From: Selenomonadaceae bacterium
Lineage (GTDB): Bacteria; Bacillota; Negativicutes; Selenomonadales; Selenomonadaceae
DNA length: 24,000 bases
Reading direction: 5' to 3'
NCBI GenBank assembly: GCA_030523645.1
Contig: JAUNIB010000005.1
Span: forward strand, 114,860-138,859
Below, piece by piece: positions 2 to 12,439 of this stretch; within the stretch, counting starts at the first letter, position 1; each line of letters starts with the position of its first letter. The notes beneath the pieces are model-generated. The model did not search any database, was not told the origin of the DNA, and saw nothing but the letters and a program-made list of their open reading frames with translations. The translations under genes and the position numbers were made by a program.

Positions 2-412
2 GCATTGGAAGCAAGTCCCCTCATCGCCCTTGCCATGGGCTACGGCCTTGCCCATCACAGCGGTGAGAATAACTACGATACTGTTTCCGCCATGCGGCGG
101 ATACAGGTAGTCAATGCCGACTATCGGGGCTATCTGAAATCACTGCCGGATAAATCCTTCGACGCAGTGTACTTTGACCCAATGTTCCGATACCCGATGG
201 AAAAATCCGTGGCCCTTTCACCTCTGCGGGAACTGGCCGAGGGCAGCCCCCTGGATGAAGACTCTGTAAGGGAAGCCTGCCGGGTAGCCCGTCATCGGGT
301 GGTAATGAAGGAAGCATGGTACAGCAAAGAATTCGCCCGCCTCGGCTTCAATGAATTCTCCGGCGGCAAATGGTCAAAGGTAAGATACGGAATCATCCGG
401 ATGGACAAATGA
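2..412 (+). CDS. C-terminal part of a class I SAM-dependent methyltransferase, RsmJ-like; the 5' end lies outside the window
   Basis: The frame is open from the window edge to TGA at 410-412. FDAVYFDPMF...KSVALSPLREL...RHRVVMKE resembles the (V)VYLDPMFP block and downstream region I recall from RsmJ-type 16S rRNA m2G methyltransferases. GC content matches the host backbone. Confidence 0.6.
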   Translation, partial: ALEASPLIALAMGYGLAHHSGENNYDTVSAMRRIQVVNADYRGYLKSLPDKSFDAVYFDPMFRYPMEKSVALSPLRELAEGSPLDEDSVREACRVARHRVVMKEAWYSKEFARLGFNEFSGGKWSKVRYGIIRMDK

Positions 413-995: not shown

Positions 996-1006
996 CCCGC
1001 AAACAT

Positions 1007-1044
1007 TATAAAAGGCACTGCCATCAATTTGGCAGTGCCTTTTT
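1007..1044 (-). terminator. Bidirectional rho-independent terminator at the left edge of the AT-rich island
   Basis: aaaaggcactgcc (1010-1022) pairs with ggcagtgcctttt (1031-1044) across an 8-nt loop, flanked by A/T runs on both sides. It directly follows the stop (1043-1045) of the minus-strand HTH gene. Confidence 0.65.
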
Positions 1045-1258
1045 AATATATAGGCTTCCTTTTTCTGCACGGATGTGCAACATCCGACAGCTCCAAAATA
1101 TAATCCGTCGTTGTGTGATGGAACTGAGCCAACGCTATCAATATAGCCGTCGGAATGTCCCGCTCGCCTAATTCATAATTACTATATACAATGCGGTGTA
1201 GGCTAGTAATATAAAACTTGCTTCTTTTAATCTTCCGGAAGCTCTCCGCAGACATCAT
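1043..1258 (-). CDS. Small XRE-family helix-turn-helix protein (about 71 aa from the MMSAES start; ORF open to 1309)
   Basis: FRKIKRSKFYITSLHRIVYSNYELGERDIPTAILIALAQFHHTTTDYILEL fits the HTH_3/XRE pattern (xxxISxxExGxRxPxxxxLxxLAxxLxVSxDYLL). The start is uncertain and there is no strong RBS. Confidence 0.5.
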   Translation of the reverse strand: MMSAESFRKIKRSKFYITSLHRIVYSNYELGERDIPTAILIALAQFHHTTTDYILELSDVAHPCRKRKPIY

Positions 1259-1668
1259 AAGGAAAACCCACTTCCGTAATAACAAGAGAATCTGCGAATC
1301 CAGCAGCATAGAACACCGGAAGAAGTCTCAGCAAGGATTGAGGGTAGCCCCTGGGAAATAGATATCATTTGTAGGAAGTAGAGCTGGTAAAGAATCTGTG
1401 GTATTTACTCTTGTAGAGAAGAAAACTGACTATTATATAGTAATCAGGATTTATGGAAAGGATGCCTCTTAAGTAATGGCTGCTATGGGATTTTTCGCCA
1501 CCTTGCAGACGAAAGGAATACATTAATCCGACAACGATTAGGATACAGGATGCCAGAAGAACTCTTTGAAAATTTTCTTGATAAAGTATATTTAATAAAT
1601 AGTCACCAATTAGTCTAATTAACCTATTCTATTTGCTATTGCAGTTTGCGAAAATTTTTTCGTACTTC

Positions 1669-1697
1669 TTGAAAATTATAGCGCACTGCGCTATAAT
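1669..1697 (+). promoter_or_regulatory. Near-consensus promoter of the M.HhaI-like gene. Its spacer and -10 overlap a perfect 19-bp palindrome carrying two GCGC sites
   Basis: TTGAAA at 1669-1674, a 17-nt spacer, and TATAAT at 1692-1697. The palindrome TATAGCGCACTGCGCTATA spans 1677-1695, with GCGC at 1681-1684 and 1688-1691. RBS AAGGAG at 1713-1718 and ATG at 1727. Confidence 0.7.
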
Positions 1698-1726
1698 TAA
1701 GAAAATAAAAACAAGGAGTTGTAAAG

Positions 1727-2707
1727 ATGATTTCAATAGAAAAGAAGTTGTTAGCAGGTTATACATTTATAGATTTGTTTGCAGGATTAGGTGGGTTCAG
1801 AATTGCATTAGAATCATTGGGTGCAAATTGTGTTTACTCAAATGAATGGGATGTCCCCGCACAGAAGGTTTATGCAGAGAACTTTGTTGATACACCAGAA
1901 GGGGATATTACAAAAGTTGATGAGAATACGATTCCTGATCATGATATACTCTGTGCCGGATTCCCTTGCCAGGCATTTTCTATTAGCGGCAAGCAACGAG
2001 GCTTTGAAGATAGTAGAGGAACATTGTTTTTTGATGTTGCGAGAATTGTAAAAGTGAAGAGACCCAAAGTTGTCTTTATGGAGAACGTGAAGAATTTTGC
2101 GACTCATGATGACGGTAAAACTCTTGAGGTTGTAGTAGGGACTATGGAGGAATTGGGTTATACATTCTATCAGAAGGTGTTGAACGCTGTTGATTATGGT
2201 GTTCCACAAAAACGAGAAAGAATTTATATGGTGTGTTTTAGAAATGATTTAGAGATTAATAATTTTAAATATCCTAAGCCATTTAAGTTAACACGTCACG
2301 TAGAAGACGTTCTTCTTGAAGACGAAGAAATGGTCAAGGACTTATATGTTGATAGACCTGATACGTATTACAATGGCGTAGAAGACAACCAGTATAGCAA
2401 TAAATCCATTCGTTTGGGTATTGTAAACAAAGGAGGACAAGGCGAAAGAATATACAGCACCAAAGGAATTGCAATTACTCTTTCTGCATACGGCGGAGGC
2501 GTCTTTGCAAAGACAGGTGGATATTTAATAAATGGAAAGACGAGAAAGTTGCATCCGCGTGAATGTGCAAGAATCATGGGATATCCAGATTCCTATAAAA
2601 TCTGTAAGAGTGCAAACCAGGCCTATAAGCAATTTGGAAATTCAGTGGTAATTGATGTTTTGCAGCTCATCGCAGTAGAAATTGGCACAGTGATGGAGGG
2701 AAAATAA
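1727..2707 (+). CDS. DNA (cytosine-5) methyltransferase, M.HhaI-like (predicted GCGC specificity)
   Basis: 326 aa with all C5-MTase motifs in order: FIDLFAGLGGFR (I), GFPCQAFS (IV), ENV (VI), QKRERIYMV (VIII), GNSV (X). It is nearly colinear with M.HhaI as I remember it. This includes the target-recognition block GIVNKGGQGERIYSTKGIAITLSAYGGG and KTRKLHPRECARIMGYPDSYK. Confidence 0.95.
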   Translation: MISIEKKLLAGYTFIDLFAGLGGFRIALESLGANCVYSNEWDVPAQKVYAENFVDTPEGDITKVDENTIPDHDILCAGFPCQAFSISGKQRGFEDSRGTLFFDVARIVKVKRPKVVFMENVKNFATHDDGKTLEVVVGTMEELGYTFYQKVLNAVDYGVPQKRERIYMVCFRNDLEINNFKYPKPFKLTRHVEDVLLEDEEMVKDLYVDRPDTYYNGVEDNQYSNKSIRLGIVNKGGQGERIYSTKGIAITLSAYGGGVFAKTGGYLINGKTRKLHPRECARIMGYPDSYKICKSANQAYKQFGNSVVIDVLQLIAVEIGTVMEGK

Positions 2708-2709
2708 AG

Positions 2710-3015
2710 ATGAATGAGGTTGGATTCAGAAATTGGCTTATCAATAAAGGTGTAAAATCAAAGGTTGCAGGAGATACAATTTCAAGATTAAAAAGAATAG
2801 AACGAGAAATTGAAAACTGCGATATTGATGAACAATACCGCAGTGATAAATGTGAATACTTATTAAAACTTTTTTTGGATATGGGTAACAATGATGAAAT
2901 GAAGAAATACCAAAATGCAAATCTTCCTATAGGAAAGTATTACATGAGTACATATCGTCATGGCCTTAAACAGTATATTCAGTTTTCGGATGATGTTACT
3001 TCAAGCAAGCAATAA
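2710..3015 (+). CDS. Hypothetical 101-aa protein, translationally coupled to the methyltransferase
   Basis: The ATG lies 2 nt after the MTase stop. AT-rich codon usage matches its neighbours. The 3' end overlaps the convergent endonuclease gene by 20 nt. No family recognised. Confidence 0.5.
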   Translation: MNEVGFRNWLINKGVKSKVAGDTISRLKRIEREIENCDIDEQYRSDKCEYLLKLFLDMGNNDEMKKYQNANLPIGKYYMSTYRHGLKQYIQFSDDVTSSKQ

Positions 3016-3787
3016 ACTCTGGTTCGGACATACCAGGTGTAGATGCTTTATGCTTGATTGAAAAAATAACATTAGCATTGTATGTGTTTGAGAGTTTACG
3101 AAGCTCATATTTATCTCCACGTAGAGAAAACATATACTCAATTCCACAAAGAATGAATCTGTGATCATGTAGCTGCTGCGGTGAAATAACAAAAAGTTTA
3201 TCTCCAGCAACACGAAAACCTGTAATAATATAACCGTAAGTTGATATATAATCCATCACAGTATTAAGTCGGCTCTTACCAACATTGCCTGAACCACTTC
3301 GTTTGATTCGATACTTAGCTGTTACTTCGAAATATTCTCTGAAACGCTCAATAGGTAAAATAGTATAGTTATTGGTGATGAAGAAATAGACTCCCTTATC
3401 TTTATATGCCTGGATAATCCAGTCAGCGAAGATATCGGAGCCGTTTGGCATATCAATATCTTTTCCGGCTGTACCAGCTTCTCTGAATGCATCGAAATCT
3501 TCATTCATATAGTCCCTTATCATTTCTGCGTATCTGTTGATGCGATTAACATTGAGACGGCTATATTCAAATGTTCTTGTATCAAGGCTTGGTAATAAAA
3601 CAAACTGTCCGCATTGAGCAGGTGAGTGCTTAGCATCAATGTAAAATGAATTACCAGATTTAGTCTCAACTGAGATGTCAGGTACAGTTGAATCAGCACC
3701 TCCTTGATGAAAAAATCTTGCATATGCACCGAATCTTTTATTAAGATAATCTGTGCATTGAATTTCAAATTCTTCCCATATTGCCAT
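2996..3787 (-). CDS. Type II restriction endonuclease, HhaI-like PD-(D/E)XK (paralogue 1)
   Basis: 263 aa. The N-terminal WEEFEIQCTDYLNKRFG...ADSTVPD-x13-DAK...QCGQFVLLP, plus YRIKRSGSG and LSNTYNANVIFSI, match what I recall of R.HhaI (active site SD-x11-EAK). The ATG lies 3 nt after the stop of the upstream paralogue, with RBS AAGGA. Confidence 0.8.
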   Translation of the reverse strand: MAIWEEFEIQCTDYLNKRFGAYARFFHQGGADSTVPDISVETKSGNSFYIDAKHSPAQCGQFVLLPSLDTRTFEYSRLNVNRINRYAEMIRDYMNEDFDAFREAGTAGKDIDMPNGSDIFADWIIQAYKDKGVYFFITNNYTILPIERFREYFEVTAKYRIKRSGSGNVGKSRLNTVMDYISTYGYIITGFRVAGDKLFVISPQQLHDHRFILCGIEYMFSLRGDKYELRKLSNTYNANVIFSIKHKASTPGMSEPEFIACLK

Positions 3788-3790
3788 TGC

Positions 3791-4639
3791 TTAATCCTTT
3801 TTATTCATTATATTCTCAAATGCTTGAAGATCCTTTTGGTCTTGTACTGTTTTCTTAAGTGATAATTGACAGATTACATTTGGGTTGCTTGTATTTGATA
3901 ATCTTCTAACTTCAAAAACATATTTCTTTAATTTAGAAAGTGCTTTTGAATAATTATTATCCTTAAATTGATATGTGTGTTCATCACACATCATTTTTCT
4001 TTTATGTATATAAGTGTCTGAGTGAAGAAAACACCTTATCTTTCCGCCGACTGATTTGTATTCGATAGCTCCTGAAATACCTTCTTCATTTAATCCTTGC
4101 ATTATTTCTGCATTATTGCTTGATTCGTTAGGTTCTGCTGAACCACTTGTTTTTCTACGATAAAAAGCCTTAATAGTGAAGTAATTAGGAAAACTGCTGG
4201 TTGGAAAAATTATTATGTCTGTTCCTTTGGTCATAAAGAATTCAACTTTTTTTACGGAATAGAAATCTTGGACTAAACCATAGAGAATTGAACTTTTGAC
4301 CTTTACAGGAGATCCCTCTTTTCCGACTTTGTAATATGTCTTATAACGTTCATTCATATACGTAATAATTTTTTTGCAATTATCAGATAGTGGAACTTTG
4401 TTTCTTTTTGAAAAATCAAATGATTTCGTGTCTTCGTTGGGAAATAATACAAACTGGCAGCATTGAGAACTCCCGGCTTTTACTTCAACAAAAAATTCAT
4501 CGGATGTTGCTGGTTCAACTTTGATGTCAGCTTTTGTTGAGTCTGATTTGCCGTATGGTTCAATTGAATTATTATCTCCATACTTATGTATTAAGTGTTC
4601 GTAACACTTGTTTTCTAATTTTTCCCAAGCATTAGCCAT
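3791..4639 (-). CDS. Type II restriction endonuclease, diverged HhaI-family paralogue 2
   Basis: 282 aa and alignable to 2996..3787 along its length. Shared blocks include WE-x-LE-x-C, SDSTKAD-x13-EVK, QCCQFVLFP, FF.T, YRRKTSGS and LSNTSNPNVI. The ATG lies 3 nt after the stop of the upstream methyltransferase, with a GAGG RBS inside that gene's end. Confidence 0.75.
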   Translation of the reverse strand: MANAWEKLENKCYEHLIHKYGDNNSIEPYGKSDSTKADIKVEPATSDEFFVEVKAGSSQCCQFVLFPNEDTKSFDFSKRNKVPLSDNCKKIITYMNERYKTYYKVGKEGSPVKVKSSILYGLVQDFYSVKKVEFFMTKGTDIIIFPTSSFPNYFTIKAFYRRKTSGSAEPNESSNNAEIMQGLNEEGISGAIEYKSVGGKIRCFLHSDTYIHKRKMMCDEHTYQFKDNNYSKALSKLKKYVFEVRRLSNTSNPNVICQLSLKKTVQDQKDLQAFENIMNKKD

Positions 4640-4642
4640 AGT

Positions 4643-5617
4643 CTAGTGTACCTCACTTTCAATGAAATTTTTAATTGAACAACCTAGGGCTTTTATAACA
4701 TTAACTGTCATTGCATTACCTGCCTGCATTAGGAGGTGTCTATCGGATACTTCATTCTTTACTTTGTCAGCATATTCCTTTGGAAATCCTTGAAGGAGCA
4801 ATGCTTCATAACCAGTCAGCTGGTATATTGTATGGTTTTTAACATATAAAACACCATCCCTCTGTGCCCTTAATGTTGGGCAACGGCCGTCATAAATGCG
4901 AAGATCATTCATACGAGTGTCAATTATCTTGCCCTCCATCTTCTTTATGTCATCAACGGTGTACTTACTGTTGTTGGTAGGGTTTTTTAGATAATAGGAG
5001 AGAATATCGAGCCTTTCTGGACTTGCAATGTTATCGTCAATTAAGAAATTAGAAAGAGAAGGTCTCATGACTGGTTCAGGCCATTGAAATTCATTTATAT
5101 CCTTCCCAAAATCCTTTCTGATGCCTACAAAGTAAACTCTTTGACGCATTTGTGGAACGCCATATTCAAGGCTGGTGAGAACCTTATAGGTTACATCATA
5201 ACCAACTCTGTTTAGTTCATTGATGATGATTTTTATCGTTTTTCCTGTGTCGTGAGTTACCAACCCCTTGACGTTTTCTAAAAGAAAACATTTAGGTTGT
5301 GTTTCTTCTAAAATTCTTGCCAAGTGGAATATGATTTGTCCTCTGTCATCAGAGAAGCCTTCTTTCCGGCCTATAACAGAAAATGTTTGGCATGGAAATC
5401 CAGCAATCAACATATCGTATGGTAGTAATTTTTCAGTTTTAATTCTTTTTAAATTATAGTAGTAAGGTTCGTCTGTAGTATCATGCATTAAGGTATAGGT
5501 GCGAACAGCCAATTTGCTTGTGTCTGAGTAACCGGTGCTTTTAAGTCCGGCTTGCTCTAAACCTAGACGTCCGCCGCCAATACCCGAGCATAAATCTAAA
5601 AAAGTATTAATTTTCAT
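4643..5617 (-). CDS. DNA (cytosine-5) methyltransferase (second, with a distinct target-recognition region)
   Basis: 324 aa with motifs FLDLCSGIGGGR (I), GFPCQTFS (IV), ENV (VI), QMRQRVYFVG (VIII), TLRAQRDG (TRD) and QAGNAMTVNV (X). RBS GAAGGA lies upstream of the ATG. Confidence 0.95.
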   Translation of the reverse strand: MKINTFLDLCSGIGGGRLGLEQAGLKSTGYSDTSKLAVRTYTLMHDTTDEPYYYNLKRIKTEKLLPYDMLIAGFPCQTFSVIGRKEGFSDDRGQIIFHLARILEETQPKCFLLENVKGLVTHDTGKTIKIIINELNRVGYDVTYKVLTSLEYGVPQMRQRVYFVGIRKDFGKDINEFQWPEPVMRPSLSNFLIDDNIASPERLDILSYYLKNPTNNSKYTVDDIKKMEGKIIDTRMNDLRIYDGRCPTLRAQRDGVLYVKNHTIYQLTGYEALLLQGFPKEYADKVKNEVSDRHLLMQAGNAMTVNVIKALGCSIKNFIESEVH

Positions 5618-6198
5618 TGTTCTTAATCCTTCACTGGTTTGTTATTTTAGTTCTGGGTCGGTAGATTGTAAAAACAAATTGAATAAATAAAAGACTCACG
5701 GCGAATCTTTTAGTATAATTAAGTTACCATACAAAAAGCTATCAAAGGAAAATGCCCACGAGTCGTATCTATTCTATCACTATTGCACTTAGCCGCGAAA
5801 GAGGTCAGCAGCTAAAATTTGAGTACAGAGTGAGTATCAAGATTTATAGGAAGCTCAAATATATGCTTAGAGCTATCTTGAGCTCTTGCCTGTTCTCTTT
5901 GTTATCCACTGTTATTATGAACTAAAACATGGTGATAGGAATGGTTCAAGAGGATGCTACCCTGAATATAGCCCAGACCGCGGGCAAGCAAACTATGAGA
6001 AGGACCATGTGTGACTGGGGATGGTTCTCATTGACACAATTTTACTTAGCATGAGTCAGATGTTACTGTTCTCAGTGATACAAAAACAGGCTAGGGTTTC
6101 ATGTGAGTCCCTGGCCTTCCTATATGGCACCAATTAGGCATGATAAAATCCACCTGTTCAACTGGTGGTAAGTAAAAATATCTTATAGAAAAGTAAAT

Positions 6199-6254
6199 GA
6201 CCTCCTATGTTACGATTGTGCAAGCTGACAACCACACAAAGAACATAGGAGGTC
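6199..6254 (+). promoter_or_regulatory. Stem-loop that sequesters the RBS of the IS200-type tnpA remnant
   Basis: Perfect 13-bp arms, gacctcctatgtt (6199-6211) and aacataggaggtc (6242-6254). The 3' arm contains the AGGAGG located 7 nt before ATG 6260. An RBS-occluding hairpin is a known feature of IS200. Confidence 0.6.
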
Positions 6255-6259
6255 TTGTC

Positions 6260-6386
6260 ATGAATTATGTAAAGAGATTATCACATAGCAAGTGGAGCTG
6301 TAAATACTACATTGTTTTACACTGGAATATTGCGACAGATAATATACGGTAAGATAAAGGCAGACCTATTAAATGCTTTGTGATGA
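6260..6386 (+). pseudogene. tnpA: Frameshifted, 3'-truncated remnant of an IS200/IS605-family tnpA (Y1 transposase)
   Basis: MNYVKRLSHSKWSCKYYIV matches the N-terminal LxHxKWxCKYHIVF signature. After a 1-nt frameshift near 6316 the next frame reads RQIIYGKIKADLLNAL (canonical KYRRxxIYGxxxxxL). Two stops follow and homology ends. Confidence 0.7.
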
Positions 6387-6515
6387 TTCTTCAACCCATT
6401 TAGTCGTATCGTGGCATTGAATCTGTTAGCTAATAGGTTTATCATAGGAACAATATGTGATGTAGCGAAATTGCACGATGTTAGGGGTCTCGATAATACT
6501 ATAAGGAGAACGCCT

Positions 6516-7145
6516 ATGAAAATAATGAAAAAGTTTACCGAACATACTAATACGTTCAGCAACTTATTGGTAGGTTTTTTTGTGATATTTTTATTACACT
6601 TAGTATTGGTTTGGCTTGCTGGCAATGTGGATACTTCGATTTCACGTGTGGCTAAAATTTTTCTGAAGATGTTAGATCTTTTAACAGCTGATTTGTCATT
6701 GTTATGCGTTATCCTGTCAATGATTATGTACTATAAAGTTCAAGCATTGCTAAATAGGGAGGAAACTGCTAAGAGAATTTTAGCGTCCATGCAAGAAGAT
6801 AACATATATAAAAAAGTGGGACTGAATATGCAAATTGATATCAGCCAAAATCCTACAGAAATGTTGTATGATTTGGAGAAAAATGTAGAAAGGTTGTATG
6901 AGCTTTCTTTATTGACAAGCAAGTCTGTGACAACAGCTGACAATTCACCTCTTTTTGAAAAATGTGCCATAGGGATGCCGAATTGTTACCAAAAAGCCAA
7001 GTTGATTATGCGTTATCTCCAAATACAAATAACAGCATTGGAAATTCAGACTAAAAATGTTCCCAGTGTAAACGATTTTAAAAGGCTTGAGAAACAGCAA
7101 CAGGATTTTATAAGCCATGCTTCAAAAGTGGGATATCGAGATTAA
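6516..7145 (+). CDS. Hypothetical membrane protein: two N-terminal TM helices and a helical or coiled C-terminal half (209 aa from ATG 6516)
   Basis: RBS AAGGAG at 6503-6508 lies 7 nt before ATG 6516. TM segments are FSNLLVGFFVIFLLHLVLVWLAG and LSLLCVILSMIMYYKV. No family recognised. Confidence 0.6.
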   Translation: MKIMKKFTEHTNTFSNLLVGFFVIFLLHLVLVWLAGNVDTSISRVAKIFLKMLDLLTADLSLLCVILSMIMYYKVQALLNREETAKRILASMQEDNIYKKVGLNMQIDISQNPTEMLYDLEKNVERLYELSLLTSKSVTTADNSPLFEKCAIGMPNCYQKAKLIMRYLQIQITALEIQTKNVPSVNDFKRLEKQQQDFISHASKVGYRD

Positions 7146-7486
7146 AGAGATTTTTGTAATTAAATATAAATAGGTAGGTGTTCTTCGCATTTCATGAGAA
7201 GGATTTGCCTGTCTGCAAATTTCGTAAACCAATTTATGATTCGGAAAAATAAGATGGTTTTAGTATCTTCTTGTAAAGTCAAACAATTGTAAAAATCACT
7301 CCTTGTATAATAAGTTTTGTAAGCAAGATATCCGACGTGTCTACAAAATTTATTATACGAGGATATTAGATATTTCAGTAACATAATGAAGTCAATGACG
7401 AGGGACTTGTGCTACTTTTGTGTCCAATCAAACGTATCACAATATGGTGATAGTAGAATATTACAGCAATATTACAGCCAAAGAAG

Positions 7487-7648
7487 ATGGAAGAAATGAA
7501 TGTGGCTAGGGTGAAAGGTGGAGAAAACAATGTGGTTACCATTAGTGAGGTAAACATTAGACTGCTGCGTGAGTATAGAAACAGCGGAGATGTTTTTGGA
7601 TTCAAGCCGCTTCCCGCAGCATATAGTGATTGTAGGAGTATATTTTAA
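7487..7648 (+). CDS. Possible 53-aa ORF upstream of HEPN-like gene A (weak AbrB/MazE-like pattern)
   Basis: My own translation (below the ORF-track cutoff): MEEMNVARVKGGENNVVTISEVNIRLLREYRNSGDVFGFKPLPAAYSDCRSIF. The VVTISxxxIRLLxxxxxxGDVF pattern resembles the swapped-hairpin G-x-VTIPxxIRxxLxxxxGD signature. The RBS is weak. Confidence 0.25.
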   Translation: MEEMNVARVKGGENNVVTISEVNIRLLREYRNSGDVFGFKPLPAAYSDCRSIF

Positions 7649-7694
7649 TGTTTTAGAAGCGTATTCTGCGACATTGTCTTATTAGGGGGCTAGT

Positions 7695-8609
7695 ATGAAA
7701 ATTGAAGATTTAAGAGGGAATGAGCTTGGTAATATTGGTTTTGTAATAAAAAAGTCTAATTATAAGGGGGTAGTTTGGTTTCAGCACCATGAGATTGTAA
7801 ATGAGTTGATGATAGATGTTCTGAAATATTTGACAGCACTTGAGAATCCTCCAAATAACATGATATTCTCAAACAATATAGAATGCCTAAAATTGGTTTC
7901 TATAACATTCATATGTCTTGAATGCTATGTTAACGATGTTTTCAAATTGATTTGTAACAACGATAAAAATGCCTTTATGAGATACAGAGGAAAATCCTTG
8001 GATGCAAGGTTGAAGTTAATTATAAAAACTGCTAGATACTCCAATGTAGAACAAAATGAATTCTATAAATGTGGTTGTTTCCAATGCTTGCGTGAGTTCG
8101 AGGAATATAGAAATATAGTTTTTCATGGTGGATTTTATGAAGAAAAGACTTTCCGAAAAACTTTGTTTTCTGAAAATCCTTTAAACTGTAATGTTGTTGA
8201 TGTTCTACAGGCATTGAAAATATTGGTAGATATTTTTACTTGTTTTCGGTTCATTGTAGTAGATAAGGATATAATGCCGCAATCAGTTATTAATTATGGA
8301 GGAAAAATGTATTTTGAGAAAGTAGACATCACTTATGCTAGAGTCATAGTGCCGATGTTTGGGCATATTTTGAAGAAGCATGCGGTTGAGAGTGACCTGG
8401 AGCCATCATTATCTGATTTCTCTTTCAAATCAACTACGTTACTCCAACCCAAGGATGTTTTGTTCTGTGTACAATGCAAACAGCAAGGATCTCAACTAGA
8501 GCCTTCATGGGAAAGGTCGAATTATATGTCTGAACTTATGAACAAGCTTACAGAAAATGTAATAATTGATAAAGAACATTTTAGAATTCCAAACTATAAT
8601 AAGATGTAA
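7695..8609 (+). CDS. Uncharacterised 304-aa protein with an R-x4-H (HEPN-like) motif, paralogue A
   Basis: RBS AGGGGG at 7684-7689. Blocks shared with 11123..12025 include LENPxN, ExxVNDV(F/Y), REFE(E/Q)(Y/F)RNI(V/M)FHG, FSExP(L/I)NCNxxDVLQAxKI, CFRFIxxxKDIMP, YFEKxDIxY and (I/L)PNYN at the C-terminus. Confidence 0.8.
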   Translation: MKIEDLRGNELGNIGFVIKKSNYKGVVWFQHHEIVNELMIDVLKYLTALENPPNNMIFSNNIECLKLVSITFICLECYVNDVFKLICNNDKNAFMRYRGKSLDARLKLIIKTARYSNVEQNEFYKCGCFQCLREFEEYRNIVFHGGFYEEKTFRKTLFSENPLNCNVVDVLQALKILVDIFTCFRFIVVDKDIMPQSVINYGGKMYFEKVDITYARVIVPMFGHILKKHAVESDLEPSLSDFSFKSTTLLQPKDVLFCVQCKQQGSQLEPSWERSNYMSELMNKLTENVIIDKEHFRIPNYNKM

Positions 8610-8678
8610 TAATTGAGTAGTTGATATTTCCACTATTAAACGGTTATAGGCGTTTTGGGAGAGGAGCCATGTCAGAAA

Positions 8679-9197
8679 ATGGAGGATATAGATTTTTGCC
8701 AGCAAATCAAGATTCAGCGTCATCGCGAGTTATCTGAAAAATTTACGCAATACTTATACAGAGAATTTCCGAGCTATAATAGCTATGGGGCAAGCGGCAA
8801 TAAAGGCGGCCTTATTAACTAACGCTGGTGCAGCGGTGGCCTGCCTCACATTAATGTCGAATGTTATAAAAGAAATGAATGCAAATAAATTAGCGTGTAA
8901 TTTGTTTAATACTGAAATCGTGAATGCCATGACTTGTTGGGGGATAGGGGTGTTTTGTTCTTGTGCGGCATATGTTTTTCATATCTAACACAAGAAAGGG
9001 TATCAATTGAGTTTCAGGCACAGTTGATTTTGTTGGATGAAGCGTTTTGGAAAGATAAGGAATATAGTATGCATTTTTCTATGATTCCTCGAATTTATCA
9101 GTGGGTTGCAATTATAATGGTTGTTTTAGCGTATGCTTTACTATTGTTTGGAACAGTGAAATGCAGAAGTGCATTATTGGTGTTGCTGAATGGTTAA
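8679..9197 (+). pseudogene. Probable multi-pass membrane protein gene broken by two compensating frameshifts (pieces 8679-8822, 8785-8988, 8934-9197)
   Basis: Three overlapping ORF pieces lie in frames 3, 1 and 3. Joined, they give a ~170-aa protein with hydrophobic segments AAIKAALLTNAGAAVACLTLM, CWGIGVFCSCAAYVF and WVAIIMVVLAYALLLFG. The frame switches coincide with homopolymers: GGGG at 8787-8790 and TTTTT at 8975-8979. Confidence 0.4.
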
Positions 9198-9319
9198 ATA
9201 TAATCCTGCTACCATAAATTTTAAGAAAATATTTAGGATGGTACCTTATTTATGAATTAAATGTATGGGGTTGGCAAACATGTGCCATAATACTAATAGA
9301 AGGTGTTTATGTTGCAAAT

Positions 9320-9580
9320 ATGAGTGTTGCCAGCCTGGCCAGACATAACGAATTGATTGTGGAAGGAGTGAAGAGTGTCATGGGTGGAAAGATTCTTAAT
9401 TATGAGGCAAAGGATATTTTGAACAGAGGCCGTCAGGAAGGTCGTCAGGAGGGACGTCAGGAAGGCCGCATTTCGTTGCTTTATTCATTGGTTAAGGATG
9501 GCGTTCTTTCACTGGCAGATGCAGCAAAGCGTGCAGGTATCTCTGAACAGGAATTCAGCAATGGTATTATGCTTCCATAA
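9320..9580 (+). CDS. Small protein with a (GRQE)x3 repeat, resembling the C-terminal tail of Rpn/YhgA-type putative transposases. The true start may be ATG 9380
   Basis: NRGRQEGRQEGRQEGRISLLYSLVKDGVLSLADAAKRAGISEQEF. The EGRxEG repeats followed by a helical G(L/I)SxxE(F/I) segment are typical of the C-termini of that family as I recall. It may be a gene fragment. Confidence 0.45.
   Translation: MSVASLARHNELIVEGVKSVMGGKILNYEAKDILNRGRQEGRQEGRQEGRISLLYSLVKDGVLSLADAAKRAGISEQEFSNGIMLP
9428..9469 (+). repeat. 12-bp coding tandem repeat (ggN cgt cag gaR) x3.5
   Basis: ggccgtcaggaa ggtcgtcaggag ggacgtcaggaa ggccgc. The differences are synonymous third-position changes. Confidence 0.85.
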
Positions 9581-9689
9581 ACATATTAAAAACATCATAA
9601 ATAGTAAATAATTTAGATGCTCTACCGATCCGAAGTCCTGCGTCCACGTGGGGTGCTTTGTAGAAGATGTGGGTCATTATCTCCCATAC

Positions 9690-10328
9690 TTAATACCACA
9701 GTTTAGCTTTTAACTCATCAGGAAATTCATGATATAGTTCGTCGAATAAGCCTTTTTTTACCTCAGACACAGTTTCGTTATACTTGTCTTGGCCAATATG
9801 TCTACGACAGATAAAGAGTACGCGATAAGGTTTGCTGGAATATTCATTAATACTTCGAGGTATTAATGTCACGGGATGACAAATGTTTCCGAATAAGGAA
9901 AATCCTAGAGTTGCAGTGTTACCGTAAGCATATTGGAAATCAACATATTGACTCATCAAATCCTTGTGCCCCAGTTTCATGTAACCAGCTGCCGATATAT
10001 CGAATATGTTAGGAGCGCAAGAACACTTTTCGTTGATGGTTTTGCGGCTATGGTTTCTAGAGGGATTGCAGTCCGAGAGGGTTATCATTTTTGCCGCATT
10101 AGGAAGACAATAATCGTAAAATTTCTTGGGAGCGAGAGTTCTACTTTTTATTCCTAAAAGATGCATAAAATTTTCAGGGTCAAATCGACATTCAAACCAG
10201 AGATAAGGTGATGTCCTGTTCTTTCCAATTATCAGGAAATCATATCCTATTAGCTTTGAGTACGCTTCCGCAGAGGCTTTTATCTGATTGATAAGAGCGT
10301 CATTTGTAAAATTTGAGGTACTTATCAT
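9690..10328 (-). CDS. Putative PBECR4-like (Barnase/EndoU/ColicinE5-D/RelE-like) nuclease, 212 aa
   Basis: YLWFECRFDPENFMHLLGIKSRTLAPKKFYDYCL fits the F-x4-(N)F-x-HL-x-G(I/L)...FY-x-x-CL signature I associate with PBECR4 domain proteins. The GGAG RBS (10341-10344) sits immediately after the U-run of the upstream terminator. Confidence 0.6.
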   Translation of the reverse strand: MISTSNFTNDALINQIKASAEAYSKLIGYDFLIIGKNRTSPYLWFECRFDPENFMHLLGIKSRTLAPKKFYDYCLPNAAKMITLSDCNPSRNHSRKTINEKCSCAPNIFDISAAGYMKLGHKDLMSQYVDFQYAYGNTATLGFSLFGNICHPVTLIPRSINEYSSKPYRVLFICRRHIGQDKYNETVSEVKKGLFDELYHEFPDELKAKLWY

Positions 10329-10344
10329 TGCTTATATATTCTCC

Positions 10345-10578
10345 AAAAAAAAGGGCACGCTAAGATAAGCGTGCCCCATATTTTCAAATACCGGTTTATT
10401 TAGGTGCGTGCCACCCAATGAGAGGCCTCCCACCTCTCTGGCGAACTAGCTGTCCGCTAAAGCATACGCAACGGTTTTACGTCTCCGGTCCGACGACGAT
10501 AAGCTCCTTATATCGTGTGTCCACATTAGTGGGAGGAAACCTCGGCACATACATACTAGCATACGGAATGCTGCAGTG
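10345..10578 (-). ncRNA. Conserved structured non-coding element, copy 1; it ends in an intrinsic terminator (10345-10376) and its class is unrecognised
   Basis: It aligns along its length to 12061-12292 with no ORF conserved between the copies. The minus-strand terminator is GGGCACGC-UUAUCUUA-GCGUGCCC-U8. The internal hairpin at 10420-10438 covaries with copy 2. Confidence 0.55.
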
Positions 10579-10637
10579 TCAATCGTATTTTATGGTTTGT
10601 TCTATCGGGGATTTGACACATTGTAAATGTGTGACCG

Positions 10638-11078
10638 TTATACGGATGATGAATTTCTCTTTATGAATTCGTCTAGAGAATAAGCACTTAATGGTTGCCA
10701 GCTGTTTGTGATTATTTCTTTATCTCCCTTCCAATTGTATTGGTTGTATGCTTTAGCTATAACGATTAGTAATCTATCAAAAAATTGCATAGATGAAGAT
10801 AGCTTTTGATTTACAATGGCGAGTACAGAAGTCAACTTTTCACGATTAGAGCAGCCTTTTTCTAATTCACTAAGCTGAATTTCAATAGTTGCAATTTTAA
10901 TATATCCAAATTCGAGTAATAGATTGCCTAGTGCTTTTGATTCTTTATCCAGAAACTCTTTATGTAAGGCAGAAATTTTTTCGCCAGTGGTGAATTCTAA
11001 CAGCCATGGAGCATAGTTAATGTGTACCATTTGATGATATGAGGTTGTAACTTTATTGCCAGAAGAAAATTTACACAA
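10638..11078 (-). CDS. Hypothetical protein (146 aa from TTG 11078; about 130 aa if ATG 11030 is used)
   Basis: AT-rich ORF divergent from HEPN-like gene B. It lies upstream of, and on the same strand as, RNA element copy 1 and the PBECR4-like gene. The sequence looks helical. There is a faint resemblance (YIKIATIEIQLSELEK versus YLQIQITALEIQTK) to the C-terminal half of 6516..7145. Confidence 0.55.
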   Translation of the reverse strand: MCKFSSGNKVTTSYHQMVHINYAPWLLEFTTGEKISALHKEFLDKESKALGNLLLEFGYIKIATIEIQLSELEKGCSNREKLTSVLAIVNQKLSSSMQFFDRLLIVIAKAYNQYNWKGDKEIITNSWQPLSAYSLDEFIKRNSSSV

Positions 11079-11122
11079 TTATGGGATATAATATTATCGA
11101 CATGAAGGGTGAGGCGAGAAAA

Positions 11123-12025
11123 ATGAATCTCGATAATGTTCGAAGAGATGAGACCGGAAACGGTGCATACTGGATAAACCAGAAGTTGTATTTGTTTCAG
11201 CATACAAAAATTTTCTGTAGTGCATTGCCAGAGTTGATGCGTTTCCTGAGAGAATTAGAAAACCCTGTTAATGATATCTGTTTCCATAACAATGATAAAA
11301 GCTTTGAACTAGTGGCGATGATTTTCATGGGAATAGAGGCGTTTGTAAATGATGTTTATAGAATGAGCCAAATTGCATCTATCGGATTCTTTAAAGATAA
11401 AAAAAGAGAATCGTTACATGAAAGGATTTGGATGATTCTTAAGATAATAGGTGCAGAGAGTAGTATTGAAAAGGCGGAATTGAATAAGACGGGTATAATG
11501 AACGCAATCCGTGAGTTTGAGCAATTTAGGAATATAATGTTTCATGGTAAATATGACAAGCCTGTGATGTTTAAATACACTATGTTTTCTGAGAAACCAA
11601 TTAATTGTAATATTATAGATGTGTTACAGGCTATGAAAATAGCAGTTCAACTGATGGAATGTTTCAGGTTTATTTTTGCGGGAAAAGATATCATGCCTCA
11701 TGTGTTTCTGATGGTCAATGAAAAAGCGTATTTTGAAAAAATGGACATTATCTACAGATGTTTTATAGTACCTTACTTTAAGATGATTATGGAAAAACAT
11801 GGTTTAGAGACAATGTTGGTCCTAGAATATACACCATTTTATTTGACTGGTCCCAGAATAAAGCATCATGGGGGGACTTTCGTGATTGATGATGGCACTA
11901 GGCATGAAAGAATTAGTTTTTCTAGGGAAAAAACAGACTTATTTAATCATATACTGTGTAGGCTAGCGGATAATGTGAATGTTAAACCGGATTCCATTAA
12001 ACTGCCGAATTACAATAGGAGTTAA
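11123..12025 (+). CDS. Uncharacterised 300-aa protein with an R-x4-H (HEPN-like) motif, paralogue B
   Basis: I chose ATG 11123 because MNLDNVRRDETGN aligns with MKIEDLRGNELGN of paralogue A and GGGTGAGG lies 8 nt upstream. TATAAT at 11087-11092 falls inside the longer ORF-track version. The motif is REFEQFRNIMFHG. Confidence 0.8.
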   Translation: MNLDNVRRDETGNGAYWINQKLYLFQHTKIFCSALPELMRFLRELENPVNDICFHNNDKSFELVAMIFMGIEAFVNDVYRMSQIASIGFFKDKKRESLHERIWMILKIIGAESSIEKAELNKTGIMNAIREFEQFRNIMFHGKYDKPVMFKYTMFSEKPINCNIIDVLQAMKIAVQLMECFRFIFAGKDIMPHVFLMVNEKAYFEKMDIIYRCFIVPYFKMIMEKHGLETMLVLEYTPFYLTGPRIKHHGGTFVIDDGTRHERISFSREKTDLFNHILCRLADNVNVKPDSIKLPNYNRS

Positions 12026-12060
12026 GAAGCTATTGTGCAAAACATGATTATTTTCCAACG

Positions 12061-12292
12061 AAAAAAGGGGCACGCCATTATCAACGTGCCCAGATATTTT
12101 CAAATACCGGTTTATTTAGGTGCGTGCCACCAAATTAGAGACTTTCAACCCCTATGGCGAACTAGCTGTTAGCTAAAGCATACGCAACGGTTTTACGTTT
12201 CCGGTCCGACGACGATAAGCGCTTTATATCGTGTGACCACAAAGTGGGAGGAAACTCCTCACATATGTACTGGCATATTGAATATTGCAGTG
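12061..12292 (-). ncRNA. Conserved structured non-coding element, copy 2, with terminator at 12061-12091
   Basis: The minus-strand terminator is GGGCACG-UUGAUAAUGG-CGUGCCC(C)-U6. The invariant blocks are identical to copy 1, for example atattttcaaataccggtttatttaggtgcgtgccacc. The hairpin at 12136-12154 keeps its pairing with a different sequence. Confidence 0.55.
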
Positions 12293-12439
12293 CCCTTTTT
12301 ATTTTGCGTATTGTTGTGATGAGGAACCACTAGTCTATGATTAGCCAACTAGCTAATCTTTTAAATGTAATTGATTGCTGTCTAAAATTTACCTAATATA
12401 TGAACTGCTTGGCTGTTATATAGTCTTTGTCTTGCGGCC

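Follow-up and report, generated by a model that had tools for sequence, protein, structure and literature searches.

What do two related genes of about 300 codons encode that lie in a low-GC island of a Selenomonadaceae genome, and what would their products do for the host? The genes, called paralogue 1 (copy 1) and paralogue 2 (copy 2) here, are located in a stretch of 24,000 nucleotides (nt) of contig JAUNIB010000005.1, referred to as the window. The contig belongs to a metagenome-assembled genome, and both products are listed by NCBI as 'hypothetical protein'. HEPN ribonucleases (RNases) are among the commonest prokaryotic immune effectors and include Cas13, Csm6, PrrC, RnlA, ApeA, AbiD/F and HepS. 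An original prediction, made from the window's letters, had proposed that the two genes are diverged paralogues of an unassigned family with a HEPN-like active-site motif. On the conserved residues and a structural model described below, each gene probably, though by no means certainly, encodes a self-contained HEPN RNase defence effector of about 300 amino acids (aa), and the two copies in the window most likely act independently.

Two paralogues of a sparse protein family

BLASTP aligns the two proteins from residue 1 through the C-terminal PNYN/PNYK, with 104/304 identities (34%), 59% positives, 6 gap positions and E = 3e-64, which confirms the end-to-end paralogy at one-third to 40% identity that had been estimated by eye. 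The conserved islands named at that time, LENPxN, ExxVNDV[FY], SLxxR, REFExxRNIxFHG, FSExPxNCNxxDVLQAxKIxV, CFRFIxxxKDIMP, YFEKxDIxY and PNY, are all present in both copies. Paralogue 1 has a GGGGG ribosome-binding site about 6-7 nt 5' of its start. For paralogue 2, the start at 11123 given in the original prediction is preferable to that of NCBI at 11081, because a GGTGAGG ribosome-binding site about 9 nt before 11123, a promoter-like site at 11070-11097, from which the transcript would begin after 11081, and the family N-terminus M-x-[LI]-E-x-x-R (M1 in 95% of members), which aligns with 11123, all agree. The NCBI start of Q4D07_07120 is thus probably 14 codons too far upstream.

The family was also rightly called unassigned: no model of Pfam, NCBIfam, PADLOC 2.0 or PHROGs was matched significantly, whether by the window proteins, by any of 79 members taken singly or by the consensus of the family. 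When 1.84 billion cluster representatives (50% identity clusters) were searched exhaustively by HMMER with a five-sequence profile, 149 clusters had E ≤ 1e-3; of these, 109 reached E ≤ 1e-10 and 40 reached E ≤ 1e-30. Nearly all are proteins of about 300 aa that align end to end. Because of these cluster counts, the family is considered real, ancient and sparse. Of 5.8 billion proteins covered by a word-indexed search, only four were related to copy 1, and for copy 2 only the protein itself was returned; the relatives of copy 1 in other genomes have 50-66% identity. The family occurs in metagenomes (human gut, soil, marine and others) and in Chitinophaga isolates. Complete Escherichia coli genomes and the collections of plasmids and phages contained no match, either at the DNA level or when the protein or the consensus served as a tblastn query, and two scans of genome contigs, with alignment A2 and with P0175 (P numbers denote protein clusters, L numbers loci), found no relative.

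Conservation was read from alignment A4, which holds 79 full-length members with about 20-38% identity to copy 1. N-terminally extended members were considered as informative fusions and rejected; one has a GatB tail, probably owing to a mis-called gene start. The closest full-length relative of paralogue 1 is P0003 (L002 7078-8004), with 66% identity. Its gene has an in-frame stop at codon 208 (YF*KVD) and is split by gene callers into pieces of 207 aa and 88 aa; it is either a pseudogene or an assembly error.

The two window copies appear to be old members that evolve separately and not the outcome of a recent tandem duplication, because P0006, from another organism, is as close to each of them (38% to copy 1 and 37% to copy 2) as they are to each other (34%).

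The predicted HEPN core

HEPN domains are defined as four-helix up-down bundles of two hairpins with a variable insert between helices 2 and 3, a polar residue after the R of the motif and, often, an acidic residue of helix 2 beside the motif (PMC3710099). The R-N-x3-H string of the family has the required form, a conserved Rx4-6H with a polar residue after R. Of the 79 members, 90% have R139, 87% have N140 and 87% have H144; the full R-N-x3-H is found in 66/79 and R together with H in 69/79. The original prediction had read RNI(V/M)FH as the HEPN active-site motif and had made conservation of R and H among homologues the check on this. The conservation now found supports that reading, as do the position of the motif in the model and its coupling to E76.

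This residue, E76 of helix 2 (62-89), occurs in 92% of members. It is kept in 69/69 members with R and H and lost in 6/10 members without them, where H, N, N, S, S and D take its place (Fisher p 7.6e-7, uncorrected and with phylogeny ignored). The statistic overstates the number of events because 8/10 motif-less sequences form one clade; the other two are independent losses of H alone. E50, N166, D169, R185, D192 and P195 have no coupling with R/H. The drift of E76 inside the motif-less clade, with the rest conserved, is the behaviour to be expected of a catalytic unit made up of E76 and R/H together. Both window copies keep R, N, H and E76, and the typical helix-2 form Ex3[KR] is replaced in the family by Ex3N.

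The motif-less clade comprises eight clusters (P0056, P0065, P0066, P0081, P0082, P0094, P0100 and P0104, including Chitinophaga proteins) that lack R/H and often E76 and retain E50, D169 and P195. The context of one of its members was seen: in P0066 (L021 6124-7029; L022 506-1411), the gene is overlapped by 29 nt by an upstream gene for a 301-aa protein that belongs to no known family and carries a transmembrane helix at its N-terminus. The overlap points to a two-gene variant whose partner is a membrane protein. The open reading frames (ORFs) upstream of the window copies are unrelated to that partner.

An AlphaFold2 (AF2) model of paralogue 1, with A4 as input alignment, reached a predicted local distance difference test (pLDDT) score of 95.1 and a predicted template modelling (pTM) score of 0.91; an earlier model from 5 sequences (pLDDT 62) was too weak and was not used. 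The model has four long helices whose order and lengths, as read from the secondary structure, are those of HEPN. Within the core, conservation is lowest in the insert between helices 2 and 3. The third helix ends at F143, with R139 in its last turn and H144 as the first loop residue, so that the helical context earlier ascribed to the motif corresponds to the end of this helix. In the model, helix order, insert and motif position agree with the HEPN definition of PMC3710099, and model and motif together suggest that the family belongs to the HEPN superfamily.

About 40% of the protein is made up of two N-terminal strands (14-18 and 26-28) and the C-terminal region. For the C-terminal alpha/beta region, the library and fold searches found neither a family nor a fold match. 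Its first half contains D192 (87%), M194 (89%), P195 (99%) and K228 (87%), with a near-invariant D192-[LI]-M-P195; D169 (96%) opens helix 4. The best-conserved residues of the family lie in this first half, and the most conserved of all, P195 and D169, are outside the RNase motif. The last 70 residues are the most divergent, with 15% identity between the paralogues versus 51-56% around the motif. This pattern would fit a conserved core combined with a fast-evolving recognition surface, and the C-terminal region may act as a sensor or in oligomerisation.

Weak matches from three independent sources, Pfam, PADLOC and Foldseek, are enriched for HEPN and converge on it. Pfam gave weak matches among the 79 members to HEPN_Apea (6), RiboL-PSP-HEPN (3), MAE_28990 (2), pEK499_p136 (1) and HepT-like_2 (1), and those to HepT-like_2 and HEPN_Apea were centred on the motif helix where this was checked. 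The HEPN_Apea (PF18739) cut-off of 24.4 bits was not reached, with no match for the window proteins and 15.2 bits for one relative. The sub-threshold PADLOC matches were to RTasHEPN, CARF_HEPN_mCpol, Csx1, Cas13-ApeA, Cas13a and CARF1-CARF_HEPN. Foldseek against the PDB ranked 1ylm (YutE), 3jrt (integron-cassette HEPN) and 1jog (HI0074) 4, 14 and 16 (E 2.6-4.8), of which 1ylm and 3jrt are named as HEPN structures (PMC3710099). Among the 50 top matches listed, 1jog (0.16) and 1ylm (0.14) have the two highest Foldseek probabilities, and 3jrt has 0.02; 1jog aligns with a root-mean-square deviation of 4.8 Å over 117 columns and a target-normalised template modelling (TM) score of 0.52, and the TM score of 1ylm, normalised in the same way, is 0.40. 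Unrelated four-helix bundles, a hemerythrin domain and cytochrome c', are also returned by Foldseek. An hhalign comparison of the family with one Abi_C protein (L004) aligned the RN of both and was not significant.

Genomic context and functional analogues

The context of the family was compared in 29 distinct loci, including 20 newly sampled metagenomic loci. All-against-all BLAST of the ORFs within 3.5 kb found no recurrent neighbour, and no MNT, antitoxin-like or ATPase partner is conserved across these loci. The idea of a conserved partner was rejected on this ground, and the gene is a solo unit because no neighbour recurs.

The defence setting assumed in the original prediction was found again in relatives, one of which lies inside a type III restriction-modification (R-M) operon, one behind a type I R-M operon and one in the neighbourhood of a GmrSD gene. 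P0197 (L015) sits beside an integrase between the N6_N4 methyltransferase (mod) and ResIII helicase-nuclease (res) genes of a type III R-M system, with a 2-nt gap and a 1-nt overlap with these flanking genes. P0010 begins 83 bp after hsdS of a type I hsdR-hsdM-orf-hsdS operon that is flanked by insertion sequence elements, a DNA helicase and a PLD nuclease. About 1.1 kb separate P0003 from a GmrSD type IV enzyme and a helicase encoded upstream of it; a DUF6508 gene and a 52-aa ORF occupy this interval. P0172 lies amid TrwC relaxase, integrase, Abi_C, PIN, TIR and DUF6602 genes, and other members adjoin an AbiJ_NTD3-ATPase or an HD-CE/GHKL protein. Embedding in R-M genes is thus seen for P0197 and P0010, but not for the window copies, which are at least 2 kb from the nearest methyltransferase. 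A universal R-M linkage was rejected: in the 20 metagenomic loci there was no BLAST match to R-M/defence reference proteins, and Pfam on ten large neighbour genes gave mostly housekeeping functions. Some members are single-gene insertions between housekeeping genes. The R-M linkage is therefore recurrent, not obligatory. HEPN genes inside R-M operons are a documented theme, with AbiD/F, AbiU2, AbiJ, ApeA, pEK499_p136 and PrrC as examples (PMC3710099), and 'guilt by embedding' has been experimentally validated for another HEPN protein, HEC-08.

The most widespread close relative, P0175 (L007-L010 6691-7920), occurs on 66 contigs from human-gut samples. It always lies 80 bp after an AAA_14/DUF4143 ATPase gene on the same strand; the pair sits between a variable polysaccharide-synthesis cluster and polA, and the pairing is absent from the other lineages seen.

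In the window, the two copies belong to an island of about 35% GC (about 1000-12300) within sequence of about 51% GC (Table 1). The nearest methyltransferase is 2 kb from copy 1, and the two ORFs behind the second methyltransferase are probable restriction genes. The copies are 2.5 kb apart, with at least four ORFs and an oppositely oriented nuclease gene of the PBECR4 family between them. The 29-locus neighbour comparison did not link this nuclease gene to the family in other loci. Searching 6-8 kb to either side with hmmsearch found a second family member in this window only among the 29 loci. The ORFs that precede copy 1 bear no relation to those that precede copy 2.

Table 1. Positions of genes, motifs and predicted structural elements in the window (residue numbers refer to paralogue 1)
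Feature	Position	Strand	Remarks
Paralogue 1 (copy 1)	7695..8609	+	304 aa; NCBI Q4D07_07095
Paralogue 2 (copy 2)	11123..12025	+	300 aa from likely start; NCBI Q4D07_07120 begins 11081 (314 aa)
Rx4H motif, paralogue 1	8109..8126	+	R139-N-I-V-F-H144, C-terminal end of helix 3
Rx4H motif, paralogue 2	11528..11545	+	R-N-I-M-F-H
E76 codon, paralogue 1	7920..7922	+	helix 2, predicted accessory acid of RNase site
Predicted HEPN core, paralogue 1	7782..8243	+	residues 30-183, AF2 model
C-terminal alpha/beta region, paralogue 1	8244..8606	+	residues 184-304, AF2 model
Predicted core helix H1	residues 30-50		AF2
Predicted core helix H2	residues 62-89		AF2
Predicted core helix H3	residues 128-143		AF2
Predicted core helix H4	residues 167-183		AF2
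Insert between H2 and H3	residues 91-97, 102-112, 117-125		three short helices, AF2
C-terminal region, beta-hairpin	residues 196-209		AF2
C-terminal region, helix	residues 210-228		AF2
C-terminal region, strand	residues 255-259		AF2
C-terminal region, helix	residues 277-285		AF2
C5 cytosine DNA methyltransferase	1727..2707	+	PF00145, E 5.5e-98
Second C5 cytosine DNA methyltransferase	4643..5617	-	PF00145, E 4.2e-68
ORF behind second methyltransferase	3791-4639	-	weak restriction-like NOV_C, PF13020, E 6.4e-4
Further ORF behind second methyltransferase	2996-3787	-	same strand
PBECR4-family (Barnase/EndoU/colicin-like) nuclease gene	9690..10328	-	PF18813, E 1.8e-18

Paralogue 2 and a divergent 146-aa ORF lie between the two copies of a direct repeat of about 215 nt with 92% identity, at 10340-10560 and 12056-12276. 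On the minus strand, each copy of the repeat resembles a small structured RNA or a leader. The left copy, immediately 5' of the PBECR4 nuclease gene, has a promoter-like site (10582 to 10553), a fold of about 175 nt at -81 kcal/mol (z = -3.3) and a strong terminator (10377 to 10352 plus T8); the terminator of the right copy is at 12091 to 12068. The repeat matches no Rfam family, and a 27-mer from it has no exact match in metagenome/viral contig collections. A full-length match to the Rfam DUF3800-VIII RNA motif (RF03075; 44.1 bits versus a gathering score of 40.2) is found on the plus strand at 9616-9678, with an 86-aa ORF (9320-9580) on one side and the 3' end of the PBECR4 gene on the other; its surroundings revealed no DUF3800 gene. 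The left edge of the low-GC island is occupied, at 772-1020, by about 3.2 tandem copies of a 61-nt unit with GGGGAGG...CCTCCCC hairpins, which follow a terminator-like hairpin and the end of an S-adenosylmethionine (SAM)-methyltransferase gene. This may be a junction or an element like the repetitive extragenic palindromic (REP) sequences.

Among known systems, the nearest functional analogues of the family would be HepS, ApeA and AbiD/F, with PrrC for the R-M-embedded lineages. HepS (HEPN Solo), from the Gifsy-1 prophage of Salmonella, is, like the family, a single HEPN protein with a canonical Rx4H and with no co-occurring partner or inhibitor gene (PMC13043305). It is a partner-less HEPN abortive infection (Abi) protein that is presumed to be inactive until triggered and is proposed to be sensor and effector in one (PMC13043305). 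By analogy, HepS may be the most useful guide to how bacteria tolerate a HEPN protein that has no partner. However, the family has no detectable sequence similarity to HepS, its profile matching no PDB chain, no HepS chain is among the 50 top Foldseek PDB matches listed, and HepS is prophage-borne, whereas the family is without a match in phage records.

ApeA is likewise a single-gene HEPN protein, for which sensing and cleavage in one polypeptide have been proposed, and HEPN_Apea is the Pfam family most often weakly matched (6/79). In some lineages, ApeA lies inside R-M operons (PMC3710099). It differs in having a beta-rich N-terminal domain of about 300 aa before the HEPN domain, whereas the predicted HEPN domain of the family is N-terminal and followed by an alpha/beta region of about 120 aa; the weak HEPN_Apea matches are below gathering and cover the motif helix only. 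Abi2/AbiD/AbiF (PF07751) and RiboL-PSP-HEPN proteins resemble the family as stand-alone HEPN Abi proteins of about 300-350 aa with a motif of the R-N-x3-H type. AbiD/F has been reported in R-M operons (PMC3710099), and RiboL-PSP-HEPN, weakly matched by three members, is a distant relative of AbiD/F. However, no member matched Abi_2 among the matches listed (25 families, E ≤ 1), and no PADLOC Abi model was matched.

PrrC and RloC are HEPN RNases inside an R-M locus, an arrangement mirrored by the positions of P0197 and P0010, and act as a second line of defence once R-M is disabled (PMC3710099). They carry an N-terminal ABC ATPase that regulates the nuclease, whereas the family, at about 300 aa, has no NTPase domain by Pfam or AF2, and most of its loci, including the window, are outside R-M operons. 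HepT of the HepT/MntA pair shares the Rx4-6H motif, and 1jog and 1ylm belong to this minimal-HEPN group, but HepT has about 130 aa and is always found with an MNT nucleotidyltransferase, while the family has about 300 aa, extra domains and no MNT neighbour. The family qualifies as a member of none of these analogues. It is most aptly seen as a new family of the HEPN superfamily, of a single-protein defence kind that is already known.

Competing explanations and the meaning of the family

As a solo HEPN RNase, the protein would operate through R139, N140, H144 and E76, which form a predicted metal-independent endoRNase site. By analogy with the HEPN superfamily, this site would be completed by dimerisation, and cleavage would leave 2',3'-cyclic phosphate at the RNA ends. 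As envisaged for HepS and ApeA, the enzyme may be kept inactive, and a phage cue sensed, by the parts outside the HEPN core, namely the N-terminal strands and the C-terminal alpha/beta region; no antitoxin or partner would be needed, because these non-HEPN parts would keep it silent. Upon triggering, RNA of the host or the phage (tRNA, mRNA or rRNA) would be cut and the infection halted. The most likely role would be anti-phage or anti-mobile-element defence, as a second layer beside R-M. In the R-M-embedded lineages, the protein could be a PrrC-like back-up once restriction has been neutralised.

The original prediction had offered two options for the pair of genes, a heterodimer or independent effectors, and of these the second is favoured. 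An obligate heterodimer, in which both genes form one system with a composite HEPN site, would suit the fact that HEPN enzymes act as dimers (PMC13043305), and the two copies do share one island and both retain the complete set of motif residues and E76. It is nonetheless the least probable explanation weighed here, because every other locus has a single copy. Moreover, the copies are neither adjacent nor in one operon, each is as similar to P0006 as to the other, and the direct repeat around paralogue 2 suggests separate acquisition. Most likely, the two copies act as independent homo-oligomers with different trigger or substrate specificity. The partner of a single copy might instead be an antitoxin encoded by a small adjacent ORF, the protein then being the toxin of a HepT/MNT-like or RnlA/RnlB-like toxin-antitoxin pair. 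Many HEPN toxins have a cognate antitoxin (PMC7641770; PMC3710099), small unannotated ORFs lie beside both copies, and one member has the weak HepT-like_2 match. This is distinctly improbable, given that no neighbour family recurs in the 29 loci, that no MNT domain lies beside any member, that the L015 gene is packed between mod and res without space for an antitoxin and that the ORFs upstream of the two copies are mutually unrelated.

Several observations weigh against the solo HEPN RNase itself. No known HEPN profile or structure was matched significantly by any method: the best Pfam match had E 3.6e-4, in 1/79 members and below gathering; profile searches of PDB sequences with 5 sequences, 79 sequences and the HEPN core gave nothing relevant, their matches, such as those to Hsp70, Hsp60 and eL31, being due to chance; and Foldseek had a best E of 2.1 against the PDB and found nothing in BFVD. 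The predicted closeness of E76 to R139 and H144 is taken from co-variation. With respect to the defence role, no homologues were found in 50,697 phage or 72,556 plasmid records, an R-M link is present in only about 4/29 loci, and about half of the newly sampled loci have housekeeping neighbours (DnaE, ThrA, DeaD, AsmA). Furthermore, P195 (99%) and D169 (96%) are outside the motif and persist in the clade without R/H, and because of this persistence some conserved function appears to be independent of catalysis.

The form of the motif and the layout of the model favour the HEPN assignment of the original prediction, and the missing significant match to a known HEPN profile or structure counts against it. 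This missing match, the hemerythrin domain and cytochrome c' returned by Foldseek, and three nearly invariant acidic residues could indicate another helical-bundle enzyme, for example a metal-dependent hydrolase using E50, E76, D169 and H144, with the Rx4H being coincidental. Such an enzyme is very improbable, since the full motif form is found at the exact structural position together with the H2-H3 insert and the helix-2 acid, the sub-threshold matches of three libraries or methods converge on HEPN, and E76 co-varies with R/H while E50 and D169 do not. If the fold is HEPN, the core function could still be non-catalytic, namely binding of RNA, a nucleotide or another ligand, or regulation, with a dispensable or vestigial motif. 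P195, D169, E50 and D192, all outside the motif, are retained in the eight-member clade without R/H, and motif-less HEPN domains are known as RNA or substrate binders (PMC3710099). We regard this as improbable: R, N and H are each kept at the frequencies given above despite about 20% pairwise identity, both window copies included, and E76 is freed only where R/H are lost, as for a working catalytic site. A less doubtful, yet still unlikely, proposal is a new single-gene anti-phage system defined by a second site (E50, N166, D169, D192, P195) where the HEPN core meets the C-terminal region. This putative site would be what survives in the clade that gave up R/H/E76 and became translationally coupled to the membrane-anchored 301-aa protein (L021/L022). 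The conserved part would then be a novel trigger-sensing module that drives either the built-in HEPN RNase or a separate membrane effector, and each window copy would act as a sensor with a specificity of its own.

The central question for partner-less HEPN RNases is how they sense infection while remaining harmless at rest. The family provides a compact (about 300 aa) and confidently modelled example, outside the four libraries searched and with a distinct accessory region. Its natural active and inactive clades permit comparison, and the lineage embedded in a type III R-M system is a test case for R-M-coupled second-line defence. With a profile from A4, annotation pipelines could give a name to about 150 clusters now labelled 'hypothetical'. 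As the expected mechanism is familiar, the gain would be incremental, and another R-M-associated HEPN Abi candidate would not surprise specialists. The interest of the family lies in its accessory region, in the residues conserved beyond the motif and in the motif-less clade coupled to a membrane protein.

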